A DNA stretch of 64,000 nt. It comes from Candidatus Moanibacter sp. GTDB taxonomy: Bacteria; Verrucomicrobiota; Verrucomicrobiia; Opitutales; UBA2987. The DNA lies in assembly GCA_965215885.1 (NCBI GenBank), contig CBDCEW010000100.1, positions 128,001 to 192,000 on the forward strand, read 5' to 3'. The notes under the pieces were generated by a model. That model made no database searches, was not told where the DNA came from, and saw only the letters and a program-made list of their open reading frames with translations. Positions 29,482-35,018 of this stretch are shown piece after piece. Each line of letters starts with the position of its first letter. Position 1 is the stretch's first letter. Made by a program: the position numbers and the translations under genes.

Positions 29482-30516
29482 TTAGCCATCGGTTATTGTG
29501 CTATTATTATCGATCGCACGGCAGAATAGAGCCCAGTCGATATTTCCGCCCGATAGAATTAACCCCACTTTCCTTCCCTGCATCTTGTCTTTTTCTTTCA
29601 GGAGGGCAGCGAGGGGACATGAACCCGCACCTTCAGCTATGTTGTGAGTGTCGGTAAAATAGTATCCAATAGCGTCTAGAATTTCCTGCTCATTGAGCGT
29701 CACAATTCGCGAGACCCCTTTTAGAATACATTCGAATGCTTGTTGATTAGGAATACGTACCGCCACTCCATCCGCTAATGTATCAGCAGAGGTAGTTTCT
29801 CTGAGTTGAACATCCTCAAACGAAAGGGCGTAGGCTGGAGCATTTTCTGAAACAACGCCGACAACTTCAGTCTTAAGATTCAAGGCATTTCTGGCGGCGA
29901 TCATACCACATATCCCGGAACCCATACCGATCGGCACATAAACCGTATGCAGATCGGGAACGGTTTTGAGCAACTCAACGCTATAGGTACTAACTCCTTG
30001 AACCAACAGAGGATTAAACGATGGAAACAAATGGTGTCCACGTTCTTCAGCGAGCCTTTGAGCATAGATAAGAGCTTCATTAAAGTCCCGTCCGTGTTCA
30101 ATGAGTTTAGCACCGTAGGCCTGCATGGCTCGGTTTTTCTCGTGACTATTTCCGTGCGGAACCACGACAGTTGCTCGTAGCTTATGCCTGCGTGCGGCAA
30201 GAGCGACGCTTTGGCCATGATTCCCTCGGGTTGCGGCGATGACTCCATGTATATTTTTATTATTCTTAATTAGATTTTCGGTATACCAGACCCCACCTCT
30301 GACCTTAAATGCTCCCGTAGGTAAATGATTCTCATGTTTAACCCACACTTCACATCCGCATCTTTTGTTCAGAAGCGGCCACGAAATCTGAGGAGTTGCA
30401 CTCAGATATTTGTAGATAACCGATGCCGCTGACTCAATGTCAGCTATTGAGAAATCTAGTCCCGGCAAGCCGGGATCGGACTTTATGCCTCTTTCGAGAG
30501 AGTTATCCAGTTTCAT
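29482..30516 (-). CDS. PLP-dependent threonine/serine dehydratase family protein
   Basis: KHENHLPTGAFKVRG, ATRGNHGQS, PIGMGSG and SGGN motifs; the N-terminal ~20 aa come from a repeat. Confidence 0.88.
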   Translation of the reverse strand: MKLDNSLERGIKSDPGLPGLDFSIADIESAASVIYKYLSATPQISWPLLNKRCGCEVWVKHENHLPTGAFKVRGGVWYTENLIKNNKNIHGVIAATRGNHGQSVALAARRHKLRATVVVPHGNSHEKNRAMQAYGAKLIEHGRDFNEALIYAQRLAEERGHHLFPSFNPLLVQGVSTYSVELLKTVPDLHTVYVPIGMGSGICGMIAARNALNLKTEVVGVVSENAPAYALSFEDVQLRETTSADTLADGVAVRIPNQQAFECILKGVSRIVTLNEQEILDAIGYYFTDTHNIAEGAGSCPLAALLKEKDKMQGRKVGLILSGGNIDWALFCRAIDNNSTITDG

Positions 30517-30801
30517 TCCGACAGGCTGCTAGAGACAAGAAAATGAACCTGAGATTTGCGGGAAAGTGAACGAATTGTTGCAGAGCAGGTTCGCTATGGG
30601 CCATTTTGACACGATCAACCCGCGAGCCACAATCTTTCATCATCAGATTCGTATTCGAGGACGGAATAGATATGTCAATATCTCTCAAATCTCAGTTTCA
30701 TTTTCTTCCAAGGAATCTGTCGGTCTCATCTGAGTCGGAGTGTCGATCTGTCACCGTGAAATCTACACCACGGAGAAGCTAGGAATGCTAAGTCCGACAG
30801 A
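30456..30801. repeat. Composite MITE, copy 2; its terminal repeat is interrupted by IS110 (remainder at 32502-32510)
   Basis: Colinear with 10821-11227; AAGTCCGACAGA...GATTCCTAG is split by the IS. Confidence 0.9.
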
Positions 30802-30852
30802 AAACTGAGGTAGTCCGTCAAGGGATTTTTTGAGTTTTTTCTCATGTTGTGT

Positions 30853-32163
30853 TTACAAGGCGTTGGCATTTGCTTGCTGAAGTCTTTTCCACACCGGTGA
30901 ACCGGTGCGTTGGAGCGATTGGAGATACTTTTGCTCATCGTAGCGTTCGCTATTTTGCCAACAGCGAAACAGAATGCGGGTCCACTTGAGAGCGAGGGCA
31001 CGAAGAATGGTTTGGCGGGGTTTGCCCTGTTCTTTTTTGATCTGGTAAAAGGCCTTTGCCCAGGCACAGTTTCGGATCGAATGTTCGGCAAATTCAACGA
31101 AACTTTGCCGCACGAAGGTAGGAGCCGCCCACCGCCAGTTGACCATTCGTTTCGGTTGTCCGGTTCTTTTGTCCTGCCCGCTGTTGATCGTGACCGGAGC
31201 GGATCCATTCCACTGGGTCATGTTCTGGGCCGTTTCGAAGTGCGAACGATCGGTCCCGAACGCGCACAGCAACCGGGGACTCATGACCTCGCCGGCTCCG
31301 GGAATGCCACTGAACACGGCTGCATCGGGATGGCTTCTGAATAGCTCCCTGATACGCTTCTCATACGCTTTGATCTGCGGGCACAGGGTCAAAAGCTGTC
31401 CGGCCAACGTCTGTGCTTTTCTGCTGGATGCTTCAATGATGGCTGCATCTTCGGTCAAGGCTCGTGCGTTACCGATCAATTCGAGACGCTCCTGGATTTT
31501 GGCGTCACTGCGACAGTTGTGCTTATAGAAGAACTTTCGCAAGACACCCTCCGATGCTCTGTGCAGCTTCTTGAGGGTCGGCCAACGCAATATAAAGTGC
31601 AGGCACAGGCCACTGCCTAGATCATCGAACAATTTCAAGACCAAAGGGTTATATTGCTTCAGACAACTGCCCAACTGCTGTTCGAGGCTGGTAGCCTGAT
31701 CGACGAATCCACGGCGGTCCTCGCACAACAGGTTCAGCTCCCGTGTTTGGGCCGTGTCAGGTATGAAACATTTGGTAAAAAGCTCGGGATGTTTGAGGAA
31801 AAACTCCGCGTGTATTTGCGCATCGACCGGGTCGCTCTTGGCCCCTGATGGATACAGCGCCCGGCGATAATCCTTCGCCCTGGCCGCATGCACTGGATAG
31901 ATATCGACAAACTCCAAGCCCATCAGAAAGTTGATCAACCCTCCTCGCTTCTGGTCCACCACCATGGCCATGCGCTTGCCCACGCTGGCATACTTTTCTC
32001 TCATCTCTACGGCAAATTCGTGCAAGCTGACCGCATCCTGCGCCACCTGTCGATGGGTCCCTTTTCCCGTTTCGCTCTCTATGATCCACAGATCGTTTTT
32101 CTGATCCGCCCAATCAATTCCTATCACCACACTATATCGATTTGTTTTTTCCCTTTTCTGCAT
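30853..32163 (-). CDS. IS110 family recombinase/transposase
   Basis: RuvC-like IGIDWA...VDQ...KSDPVDA and Tnp20 domain GIPGAG...APVTINSG...RALALKW. Confidence 0.93.
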   Translation of the reverse strand: MQKREKTNRYSVVIGIDWADQKNDLWIIESETGKGTHRQVAQDAVSLHEFAVEMREKYASVGKRMAMVVDQKRGGLINFLMGLEFVDIYPVHAARAKDYRRALYPSGAKSDPVDAQIHAEFFLKHPELFTKCFIPDTAQTRELNLLCEDRRGFVDQATSLEQQLGSCLKQYNPLVLKLFDDLGSGLCLHFILRWPTLKKLHRASEGVLRKFFYKHNCRSDAKIQERLELIGNARALTEDAAIIEASSRKAQTLAGQLLTLCPQIKAYEKRIRELFRSHPDAAVFSGIPGAGEVMSPRLLCAFGTDRSHFETAQNMTQWNGSAPVTINSGQDKRTGQPKRMVNWRWAAPTFVRQSFVEFAEHSIRNCAWAKAFYQIKKEQGKPRQTILRALALKWTRILFRCWQNSERYDEQKYLQSLQRTGSPVWKRLQQANANAL

Positions 32164-32175
32164 CCCTTTGTTCCT

Positions 32176-33843
32176 TTAGTTTGTCTTTTTGCTTTTTTCA
32201 AAGGCACTGGATGTCCAGGCGAAGTCCTTATAGTTGGATCCTGTTATGAGGATGTAAACTGAGTGTTCGTTTTCGGTCATCCAGGCAGGCCGTCCACTCG
32301 AAATTCTGTCGGAAGTCCTCTTCGGACTGATTCCTAAGTTCGTAGTGGACGGCTGCCTTTGAATATTTTCACCCTTAGCCAAACAAACTCTTTGACCCAT
32401 CGCCAACCACTGATCGGCCAAGTTATTCACAAAGGGGCCTCGCCGAGTTTTTCCTGCGGCTCCACTCGGCCCCTTGGATGAATAACCTGGAGCTACTATA
32501 AGATTCCTAGCGCGATGAACGTGTCCAGCGTCGTTGCGGTCGAGGGTGAAGGTCTCGAACCAGACTGTGCCTTTCGGCCGCGAGACTAGATTGATGAGAA
32601 TCTCTTTTTGCTGAAATCCGCGGATGGCGAAGACAGTGTGTCCGATCTGCAGAGGAGAGGCGGGCCGGGCTCTCGACGCGTTCCGATCGGCAGGTTTTTG
32701 GGGATCCCCGTCGTAGGCGACGACAATTGCCTTTTCCGCATCAAACACCCCGCGGTTTCGCACCCTTGCTTTCAGAGTCTTGCGAGATCTTCGATTCTTG
32801 AAACGGACTGTCGAGGGGAGCAGCTTCACATCGCGGCACAATTGTGAATCCTTGAGAGTTACGGCGCGGCGGGCGTCGAGGATCCCAAAACCGAGATTCG
32901 GTTCCCACCCGTAAGGGTCGTAGACGAGACCGGATACGGGCCGAGTCGTATTGCGGAGAACCTGGCGTAGTTGTTCATTTTCGAGATGTGGAAAACGCGA
33001 CCATACAAGCGCCCCGACTCCGCCCGCAAACCCGGACGCCATGCAGCCTCCAGTGAAATTTATGAAATTCTGATCGCCTCCGTATCCGCGAATCTGATCG
33101 CTGAGGCGTCCCGAGGAGCGTTCTCCGCCCGGCGCCCCGGCTTCGACGTAGTCGCAATCGGGACAGATATCGGCGGGCCAGCCCTTCCGGTTTGTCGAGC
33201 CCACAGTGAAGACAGCATCGAATCCGGCTTGAAAGGTCACGACGCGCCGGCCACGGTTGTCCCCGCTGCTCTTGAAAATGAGGCATCCATGAGCAAAGGC
33301 GTAATCCATCGCCTCCCGTAGCCCGGGATTGTCCCATGGGTAGCTGAAATCCGTCCCCTGGTAGAAGAGGGGGATGCCGTTAGCCCGTTCGCCGCTTATG
33401 TAGCCGTGAGGCGTTACAAGGATCTTTGCGCCGTGGTCTACGGCGTATCGGATACCCCGTTCCCAGCTCTCGGGGTTCCCGTAGCCGACGCGCACCATCA
33501 TGATGGGGCACTCCGGCGCGAGGTGGGCCACTTCGCCGCCCACAAACCCGTGGTGTCCCCGAAAATACTCGCTGCTTTCCTCACGCACGCCCCGGTATTC
33601 AAGGCTGGCGTCGTCATCGACGAAATCCCATCCATGCCGTCTGCTTCGCTTGTTCTTCGGGTCGATCCACAGATGCGGTTCAAGATCGCTGTGGGTCCGG
33701 TAGCCGATATCGATTACAGCTACGATCAGGTTCTTGCTGCCCCGTGTGGTCTCGTGCGCCCTTTGCACCCCCAGTTGCCGCAGCGCCCAACCGTAGAGGG
33801 CAGGACCGCGACGAGGCGAAGTACCTGAGGAGCGAGGACTCAT
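32176..33843 (-). CDS. Subtilase (S8)-like protein with atypical catalytic motifs; C-terminus reads through into IS110
   Basis: VAVIDIG (Asp), GHHGFVGG (His), SSGDN and TGGCMASG (Cys in place of Ser). Host-derived sequence ends near 32510. Confidence 0.75.
   Translation of the reverse strand: MSPRSSGTSPRRGPALYGWALRQLGVQRAHETTRGSKNLIVAVIDIGYRTHSDLEPHLWIDPKNKRSRRHGWDFVDDDASLEYRGVREESSEYFRGHHGFVGGEVAHLAPECPIMMVRVGYGNPESWERGIRYAVDHGAKILVTPHGYISGERANGIPLFYQGTDFSYPWDNPGLREAMDYAFAHGCLIFKSSGDNRGRRVVTFQAGFDAVFTVGSTNRKGWPADICPDCDYVEAGAPGGERSSGRLSDQIRGYGGDQNFINFTGGCMASGFAGGVGALVWSRFPHLENEQLRQVLRNTTRPVSGLVYDPYGWEPNLGFGILDARRAVTLKDSQLCRDVKLLPSTVRFKNRRSRKTLKARVRNRGVFDAEKAIVVAYDGDPQKPADRNASRARPASPLQIGHTVFAIRGFQQKEILINLVSRPKGTVWFETFTLDRNDAGHVHRARNLIVAPGYSSKGPSGAAGKTRRGPFVNNLADQWLAMGQRVCLAKGENIQRQPSTTNLGISPKRTSDRISSGRPAWMTENEHSVYILITGSNYKDFAWTSSAFEKSKKTN
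32200..32490 (-). ncRNA. Predicted IS110 bridge RNA (accessory hairpin, target-binding loop, donor-binding loop)
   Basis: Two stem-internal loop-stem modules whose loop strands match the target and the circle-junction donor (see findings). The ends are approximate. Confidence 0.85.
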
Positions 33844-33890
33844 ATTCGTTGACGGATTAAATCTTATCTTCGCATTGATTGGACACGCAA

Positions 33891-35018
33891 CTACGCGGAA
33901 ACTCTGAAGCGCGAGGCGAGCCACGGTGCGAGGTCCAGCGGGCAATTTCCGGTACGAATCCATTCCGCGAGGTGAGGCCCCAGGGCGACCGAGTATTTAA
34001 ACCCTTTGCCGCTCCACCCACAGTCGATGAAGAGATTTTCCAGCCCCTCGACAAAACCCAACAGGGGCTTCATGTCGGGAGTCTCGTCGTAGCAGGTGGC
34101 GTAACCGCCCTGGAATACCCCCCTGCGCATATTCGGCAGGTGATATCGGATCGATTCAGAACACCGGTCGACCATCCAGTTTGGGCAGGTCGACTCGGTT
34201 GGGTCGGGGTCGACAGGTATCCGCGGTTTACGGTCATCGCAAAGAACCCTGATGTTGGAAGCGTGCCAGGGTACGAAGCCACCGATCCCGTCGACCCATA
34301 CTACCGGCGGCCGTTCGAAGAACCCTGGGGGTCGACGGTAGAAGGACACCCCCACGCGAACGTTTTCAATGGGTAACTGGATGCCCGCCATGGCCGCCAC
34401 TTTGAGGCTCCACGGACCACAGGCGAGGACCACTTTCCCAGGTGAAATCGAACCGGTGGCGGTATCTACGGAGGTAATTTCCCCCTTTTCTACGTGGAAG
34501 CGTTCCGCCGGCGAAAACTCCCTTAATTCCGCGCCGTATTCCCGTGCCGCCCGGGCATAAGAGTGCACCGTCTGAAAGGCATCGACACAACCCGTTCTGG
34601 GAAAGAAAGCCGCCGCTTCGACGCCGTCGGTGTTAAACTCCGGATAGACATCGTGGATCTCTTTTCCCTCTAAAACTCGAACCGTGGACCCGTTCCGTCT
34701 GGCGGCGGCCGCGTACTTCTCTGTGGTGGCCAGATCATTGCGGGCGACGAGCAGGCCATGATTGAAAAAACCGCAACTTCCTCCGACCTCCTCTTCAAAG
34801 TTTTCGTATGCCTCCAAGGCACTGACCGCAAGGCGGCTGATGGTGTCGGTTTCAGCCGCTTGCTGTCCGCACATCGCTCCTGAGAATGCGGTCGTACCCG
34901 AGGCGAGGGCTCTGCGTTCGCAGAGCACGACCTTGCCCTCCTTCCTTCGGGCGAGGTGGTAGGTGATCGTAATACCCACGATCCCTCCTCCGATAACTAA
35001 ATAGTCGGTTGATTCCAT
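33891..35018 (-). CDS. FAD-dependent oxidoreductase (DAO/sarcosine oxidase beta-like)
   Basis: VIGGGIVG, GPWS, YDETPD and GWSGKGFK motifs. Confidence 0.85.
   Translation of the reverse strand: MESTDYLVIGGGIVGITITYHLARRKEGKVVLCERRALASGTTAFSGAMCGQQAAETDTISRLAVSALEAYENFEEEVGGSCGFFNHGLLVARNDLATTEKYAAAARRNGSTVRVLEGKEIHDVYPEFNTDGVEAAAFFPRTGCVDAFQTVHSYARAAREYGAELREFSPAERFHVEKGEITSVDTATGSISPGKVVLACGPWSLKVAAMAGIQLPIENVRVGVSFYRRPPGFFERPPVVWVDGIGGFVPWHASNIRVLCDDRKPRIPVDPDPTESTCPNWMVDRCSESIRYHLPNMRRGVFQGGYATCYDETPDMKPLLGFVEGLENLFIDCGWSGKGFKYSVALGPHLAEWIRTGNCPLDLAPWLASRFRVSA

Follow-up and report, generated by a model that had tools for sequence, protein, structure and literature searches.

An IS110-group insertion sequence with a readable predicted bridge RNA, aimed at an abundant short repeat in Candidatus Moanibacter sp.

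The window analyzed here, a stretch of 64,000 nucleotides (nt) from Candidatus Moanibacter sp. (GenBank assembly GCA_965215885.1, contig CBDCEW010000100.1, positions 128,001 to 192,000 of the forward strand), carries on its minus strand a mobile element of the IS110 group of insertion sequences (IS), whose left end encodes a predicted bridge RNA. All positions below are those of the window unless a contig or locus is named. As read from the sequence, the element occupies 30802-32501 (minus strand), is 1700 bp long and runs from TTATAGT to CTCAGTTT. These ends are not inverted repeats of each other, and a TC dinucleotide stands on either side of the element, at 32502-32503 (left-junction core, minus strand) and at 30800-30801 (right-junction core, minus strand), as is expected of IS110-group ends. 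The recombinase gene (436 amino acids; 30853-32163, minus strand) leaves non-coding ends of 338 nt on the left and 51 nt on the right. A long left end that holds the RNA and a short right end are characteristic of the IS110 group as described by Durrant et al. (2024, PMC11208160). An empty allele of one copy is shorter by exactly 1702 nt, that is, 1700 plus 2 nt, which indicates a 2-nt core and no target duplication. A preliminary description of this DNA stated that removing 30802-32501 restores a repeat end. Excision does restore CTAGGAATCTGTCGGA, but the removal has to comprise 1702 nt, the element together with one TC, and not 1700 nt.

The recombinase matched the Pfam domains PF01548 (E 1.2e-17, 64.5 bits against a cut-off of 29) and PF02371 (E 2.3e-09, 38 bits against a cut-off of 21.3), in agreement with its earlier assignment to the IS110 family. 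Its RuvC-like DEDD domain carries D17, D70, D111, and D114, and its Tnp domain carries S328-G329. Among the 120 best homologs, D17, D111, and S328-G329 were invariant, and D114 was present in 119, the remaining one having E. Position 70, within the motif VVDQ, was E in 113 of the 120 homologs and D in 7; the second acidic residue is therefore D rather than E, as had been suggested. D70 was borne by the query's own cluster and by the six relatives nearest to it, all seven with at least 59% identity. When the PDB was searched with phmmer, only the Tnp domain aligned to the IS621 and ISCro4 chains (E 1.7e-4 for IS621). The active-site residues reported for IS621 are D11, E60, D102, D105, and S241 (Hiraizumi 2024; Durrant 2024), and the spacing of D17, D70, D111, D114, and S328 parallels theirs. 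Since phmmer aligned the Tnp domain alone to the IS621 chain, we infer the equivalence of D70 and E60 from the family alignment and the spacing, not from a direct alignment. The E-to-D variant is evidently tolerated and compatible with activity, because both of the D-bearing elements exist as many near-identical copies.

The left end folded at -120.6 kcal/mol, compared with -90.6 +/- 5.7 kcal/mol for 100 shuffles (z = -5.25). The fold consists of a 5' hairpin followed by two stem-loops with internal loops beneath a common closing stem, so that the two loops of a bispecific bridge RNA, one for the target and one for the donor, were both recovered as previously proposed. The 5' stem-loop (approximate limits 32419-32489, minus strand) was present in the minimum-energy and the centroid folds and is kept in an 80%-identical element described below. 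The target-binding stem-loop (32289-32353, minus strand) has an outer stem, a closing CGAA/UUCG stem, an internal loop and an inner hairpin, whereas the donor-binding stem-loop (32207-32284, minus strand) has the outer stem CUGGAUG/CAUCCAG, again a closing CGAA/UUCG stem, and an inner hairpin of its own; the fold, the covariance model and the pair counts support both. The order of the segments was ACGAAC, guide UUAGGAAUC, hairpin AGUCC-GAAGA-GGACU, guide UCCGACAGA, and AUUUCG in the target loop, and ACGAAC, guide A-CUCAGUUU-AC, hairpin AUCCU-CAUAAC-AGGAU, guide CCA-ACUAUAAGG, and ACUUCG in the donor loop. The four loop segments lie on the minus strand at the positions that the preliminary description had given, with the stems AGTCC/GGACT and ATCCT/AGGAT between them.

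The four guides were compared with the DNA that they should recognize (all on the minus strand). The left target guide (32329-32337, TTAGGAATC in DNA letters) has the sense of the left target half and the core, and the right target guide (32305-32313, TCCGACAGA in DNA letters) is the reverse complement of the core and the right half, TCTGTCGGA. In the donor loop, the left guide with the AC that follows it covers 32254-32263, of which 32263-32256 read CTCAGTTT, the last 8 nt of the element; the right guide (32226-32234, ACTATAAGG in DNA letters) is the reverse complement of C-TTATAGT, and its last G stands opposite the core T as a wobble. In both loops, the 5' guide is thus the top-strand sense (of the left target or of the right end), and the 3' guide is the reverse complement of the core plus the right target or the left end. 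The donor guides agree with the ends of the element, CUCAGUUU being identical with the right end and the reverse complement of ACUAUAAG being C followed by the left end. No intrinsic terminator was seen between the donor loop and the gene.

A -35 hexamer, TTGACG, lies in the right end (30816-30821, minus strand), and a -10 hexamer, TATAGT, lies at the start of the left end (32495-32500, minus strand). When the ends are joined through TC, they read TTGACG-17-TATAGT and match 10 of 12 consensus positions. A consensus scan of the integrated copy gave no sigma-70-like site; by its sequence, the promoter forms at the circle junction only. The junction promoter was present in all 16 relatives with both ends mapped, with the 17-nt geometry in 15 and an 18-nt spacer in one.

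The genome that holds the window is metagenome-derived, with 6.36 Mb in 105 contigs; its completeness is estimated at 90.3% and its contamination at 5.47%. Full-length copies of the element numbered 10, at 100% identity (a rounded search value; each copy has 0 to 2 differences). Partial matches comprised a 488-nt piece at a contig start (C84:1-488), besides fragments of 211 and 72 nt. The 211-nt fragment (C99:54428-54638, 97% identity) belongs to the recombinase gene, and the 72-nt fragment (C6:7714-7785) is a weak match (78%) to the 5' hairpin region; each may be a relic of this or a related element. The preliminary description called for the flanks of all copies to be mapped, and this placed nine of the ten at AGGAA-TC-TGTCGG and the tenth, on contig C84, at a donor look-alike site. 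The nine copies share the flanks AGGAATC on the left, which the left target guide matches, and TCTGTCGG on the right. The base before AGGAA was T, like that of the guide, in 6 of the 9, and the ninth base of the right flank was A in 7 and T in 2. The proposed TC core was found at 9 of 10 left junctions, the C84 copy having AC, and at 10 of 10 right junctions. The unoccupied 13-mer AGGAATCTGTCGG occurred 256 times on the two strands together, and the same pattern read backwards occurred 0 times. The variant of the site with AGGAG was unoccupied at 7 places, compared with 256 for AGGAA, and the on-target insertions were at AGGAA in 9 of 9.

A second genome of the same family, G492 (8.3 Mb), contains more than 20 copies of a related element of 1712 bp, 80% identical in protein. 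Its left target guide is UUAGGAGGC in place of UUAGGAAUC, and its right target guide is unchanged. The sequence before the core was CTAGGAG at 23 of 23 left junctions, and the distinct right junctions read TCTGTCGG in 21 of 23, the other two differing by one base. Among the 828 unoccupied sites of this genome, AGGAA (591) was 2.5 times commoner than AGGAG (237). If the element chose randomly among the sites of G492, the probability of this outcome would be (260/851)^23, or ~1e-12 by our own arithmetic. Both variants are thus available unoccupied in G492, and the related element is found only in the less common one, AGGAG, to which its guide corresponds. The right donor guide of this element, ACUAUAAGA, is a perfect 9-nt match to the end. 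Between the two elements, compensatory changes occurred in the inner stem of the target loop (C-G to G-C) and in the closing stem (A-U to G-C), and one pair was broken. One related copy in G492 (C1:1020940-1023215, L063/L064) is itself interrupted: ~560 bp have been inserted where its position 1473 would adjoin position 1467.

A scan with peptide patterns over one genome per species found no relative. Whole-genome searches found relatives in 16 of 400 other sampled genomes of the phylum (E <= 1e-20) and in 6 of 400 other sampled genomes of the order (E <= 1e-40). A covariance model built from two sequences, those of the window element and the G492 element, was run on 92 loci from related genomes and metagenomes, which represent relatives of ~26-46% identity. 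Of the 92 loci, 74 gave a match at E <= 1, and 68 of these reached E < 0.001. Nearly every match whose coordinates were compared lay just upstream of the gene on the same strand, and the match at locus L151 overlaps the predicted gene start. In the alignment, which was fitted to the model, 92.5% of the cells were paired, compared with 27-45% when the partners were slid, and 43 of 46 pairs changed on both sides. The donor guides (CUCAG..., ACUAUAAG) are conserved over the clade, whereas the target guides vary widely.

The flanks of these relatives, those from metagenomes at ~40% identity among them, agreed with their own guides. With offsets of up to 3 nt allowed for real and permuted pairs alike, left flank and left guide agreed on average at 6.76 of 8 positions (29 loci), compared with 4.44 in 200 permutations (maximum, 5.00). 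For the right flank, the right end was placed where 8 of 8 donor-guide positions matched (26 loci), and the 7 nt after the core then matched the right target guide at a mean of 6.15 of 7 positions, compared with 3.06 in 500 permutations (maximum, 3.85). Individually, 13 loci matched at all 7 positions, 9 at 6, 2 at 5, 1 at 4, and 1 at a single position, and 21 distinct right guides were represented. The covariation of guide and target in homologs, suggested earlier as a check, is thus seen in the 23 of 23 AGGAG junctions of G492 and in family matches that exceed the permuted controls. The core was TC in 24 of the 26 loci and AC in 2. By position, the right guide matched in 23 to 26 of the 26 loci at positions 1-8 and in 13 of the 26 at position 9. 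Because positions 1-8 match so generally, the long right guide is a property of the clade and not of the window element alone. The preliminary description had called a right guide of ~9 nt unusually long; it is long compared with the 4 nt of IS621, but 8-9 nt is normal in this clade. Handshake guides would have the bases beside the core-binding bases pair with the non-cognate DNA; at the first position after the core-binding bases, pairing was more frequent with the cognate than with the non-cognate DNA, at 9 versus 4 in the target loop and 10 versus 5 in the donor loop among 15 distinct elements, in some of which the register may be off by one.

Taken together, these observations indicate that the element is an active insertion sequence of the IS110 group and works with a predicted bridge RNA encoded in its 338-nt left end, and we put the probability of this reading at about 93%. 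The pattern is not due to chance, as judged from the flanks shared by 9 of 10 copies, the z value of the fold, and the different sequences in relatives that beat permuted controls. By analogy with IS621, excision would join the ends through the TC core, and the promoter formed at the joined ends would then transcribe the left end. In the resulting RNA, UUAGGAAUC would pair with the target's bottom strand, and UCCGACAGA, being complementary to the top strand, would pair with the core and the right half; CUCAGUUU and ACUAUAAGG would stand in the same relation to the right and left ends of the element. The recombinase, for which homology predicts a DDDD RuvC-like site and the Tnp serine S328, would juxtapose circle and target on the RNA, and strand exchange across the 2-nt core would insert 1702 nt and leave no duplication. 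A repeat family with hundreds of copies ends in the programmed site, AGGAA-TC-TGTCGG, and thereby gives the element many safe landing sites, mostly intergenic.

Several observations weigh against this reading. The circle junction had 0 matches in the assembly, and one of the ten copies, that on C84, lies away from the programmed target. None of the 10 runs that hold the stretch was on record as an RNA run, and Rfam 15 gave no match at E <= 1 over 30500-32800 except for a sub-threshold chance match to a microRNA. The core's first base is mismatched by the left donor guide (AC against TC), and the core positions of both left guides are mismatched in the G492 element. In the family comparison, 26 of the 74 model matches were left out because their loops were incomplete or upstream sequence was lacking, and among the 48 that remained, the left end was placed in 29 and the right end in 26. 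Furthermore, in the minimum-energy fold a small number of guide bases are paired among themselves, and these would have to open on the protein. The preliminary description had named the folding of guide segments into stems as grounds for rejection; the fold leaves the loops internal, yet these few guide bases do pair mutually. Targets that are partly palindromic should give such guide-guide pairing, however, and it does not count against the model of a bridge RNA.

Two other explanations were considered. The protein, or the hairpin structure of the repeat, could pick the site and the loop matches be incidental, for example a repeat fragment captured in the left end. The target does lie within a palindromic repeat able to form a hairpin, and according to a 2026 preprint, ISPpu10 needs sequence and structure combined. 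However, the two guide halves do not together copy one uninterrupted stretch of the repeat, since one is sense and the other antisense with a hairpin between them; guide and sites change together between two genomes that each hold both site variants; and the 21 distinct right guides of the relatives predict their own flanks. We therefore consider incidental loop matches very unlikely. It could also be argued that the element is a fossil whose copies arose by segmental duplication or as an assembly artifact of a metagenome-derived genome, and not by recent transposition. The estimates of completeness and contamination leave some room for this, and one copy occurs a second time, together with at least 5 kb of its flank, at 99.6% identity. 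Nevertheless, the ten copies differ in their flanks beyond the target motif, the reading frames of all of them are intact, and public runs contain both the occupied and the empty allele of one site, so that a fossil origin seems even less probable than incidental matching.

The tenth full-length copy (C84:54655-56354; locus L009:1501-3200) interrupts a gene for a polytopic membrane protein. Its left flank, CACCTCAGTTT-AC, is identical with the left donor guide over 10 of 10 nt, AC included, and its right flank is TC-TTATGGGG. The whole site resembles the joined ends (ACCTCAGTTT-TC-TTATAGT), not the target. This copy, with the flank of at least 5 kb, is present twice on the contig in inverted orientation. 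An empty allele, which reads ACCTCAGTTT-AC-TTATGGGG and lacks exactly 1702 nt, was found in contigs of two other public runs. In one of these contigs the reading frame of the gene is preserved by 2 additional nt that lie 33 nt downstream. A 1700-nt insertion at this site, first suggested by the reading frames, was rejected, as the 2-nt difference downstream in the empty allele explains it. No uninterrupted form of the gene was found in 8 other genomes of the family. By these sequences, the C84 copy is a natural donor-directed off-target insertion. Its site, ACCTCAGTTT-AC-TTAT, is like the donor-directed "half-match" off-targets described for IS621 (Xie et al. 2026 preprint; Durrant 2024 Extended Data Fig. 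7f,g); unlike these, which are assay reads, it is a natural event fixed in a wild genome.

Unequal junction cores were found in four insertions, namely, AC in the C84 copy and GC, GC, and CC at the G492 loci L046, L055, and L063. In 4 of 4, the variant core was at the left junction and TC was at the right; variant right cores numbered 0 of 10 in the window's genome and 0 of 23 in G492. A 4-of-4 pattern has a chance of 1 in 16 under random segregation and is suggestive at best. It is possible, but rather doubtful, that the way in which mismatched cores are resolved in vivo has left its signature in these genomes. Variant cores confined to the left would be expected if the top strands were exchanged and replication followed, or if the circle were inserted in single-stranded form, but not from full double-strand exchange with random segregation, and we offer this only as a tentative reading. 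If it were true, the core pattern and the C84 insertion would lend support from natural populations to the copy-and-paste and "half-match" models that cell-free work gave rise to in 2026.

The window element shares much of its plan with IS621 as published (Durrant 2024; Hiraizumi 2024). In both, the bridge RNA lies in a long left end and has a 5' hairpin, then the target loop, then the donor loop; the left guides have the top-strand sense, the right guides are antisense, and the core falls within the guides. Both have a sigma-70 promoter that spans the joined ends (reported for IS621 by Durrant et al.), are inserted into a repeated palindromic element, and show the DEDD + Ser active-site layout. 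The two differ in the protein (436 amino acids versus 326), the core (TC versus CT), the right target guide (8-9 nt versus 4 nt), and the second acidic position (D versus E); in the window element, unlike IS621, the same CGAA/UUCG stem closes both loops, and only the Tnp domain can be aligned. Longer right guides are reported for some orthologues (Durrant 2024). By their published descriptions and not by their sequences, ISPpu9 and ISPpu10 of Pseudomonas putida, IS110-family elements inserted in repetitive extragenic palindromic (REP) sequences, are similar in being multi-copy and confined to one conserved, repeated intergenic sequence, although their hosts and targets are others. An aim at the inverted-repeat end of another element is shared with an IS110-family element cited in Durrant 2024. 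In contrast, the IS1111 group is described as having the RNA in the right end and long subterminal inverted repeats, whereas the window element has the RNA in the left end.

The case is well supported: the element is a very clear but otherwise ordinary bridge-RNA element of the IS110 group, directed at an abundant repeat, with little that is new in kind. Its interest lies in an unusually legible natural system, in which both loops can be read straight from the sequence for a mechanism first described in 2024. The target specificity is confirmed twice, by the many copies in the window's genome and by the single guide change of the sister element, which tracks the other repeat variant. Moreover, a clade with a TC core and a right guide of 8-9 nt could interest engineers of bridge recombinases, because a longer right guide (7 bp) improves the specificity of IS621 (Durrant et al. 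2024).

The repeat at the insertion site was also characterized. The window element splits one repeat unit of ~95 bp. The left piece, CTAGGAA, which is the left target half, lies at 32504-32510 (minus strand), and the right piece, at 30711-30799 (minus strand), starts with TGTCGGACTTAG and extends to an inverted copy, CCGACAGATTCCT, at 30723-30711. The unit overlaps the 3' end of a subtilase-family (Peptidase_S8) gene at 32502-33963 (minus strand), which runs into the short repeat; its frame extends ~110 codons into the left end of the IS, so that the C terminus is altered. With up to two mismatches allowed, 388 + 393 repeat ends were found in the genome. The motif occurred in inverted pairs spaced ~95 bp apart (90-99 bp) 105 times, and ~35, ~65, and ~85 bp apart 31, 14, and 14 times, respectively.

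The element had been described as aimed at another mobile element, the end of a miniature inverted-repeat transposable element (MITE). An abundant repeat end with inverted motif copies was indeed found, but no sign of its mobility. An autonomous transposon bounded by the repeat motif was rejected, since 15 of the 16 candidates proved to be regions present in a single copy, most of them ordinary genes with a solo repeat end on either side, and the sixteenth was a different IS inserted in another type of repeat; no autonomous partner of the target repeat was thus present among the 16 candidates in the genome. No link of the repeat to a repeat-associated tyrosine transposase was found either: repeat ends nearby on both sides were present at 0 of 19 Y1-transposase loci in the genome, and three such loci had one or two repeat ends within 500 bp on a single side only. 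MITE therefore stays a label for a repeat that may be a MITE, a REP-like element, or something else.

Two further groups of mobile genes were noted in the same genome. Nine near-identical copies of an IS200-like Y1 transposase of 152 amino acids (e.g., C2:12509-12871) and ~15 longer open reading frames with a Y1 domain are present, none with the target repeat on both sides. Another IS, unrelated to the window element, 1855 bp long and encoding a transposase of 471 amino acids, is present in ~20 copies (e.g., C68:35882-37736). The C68 copy sits in another type of short repeat that shares the end TAGGAATCTGTCGGAC, and the corresponding empty repeat is found at C34:8613-8905.

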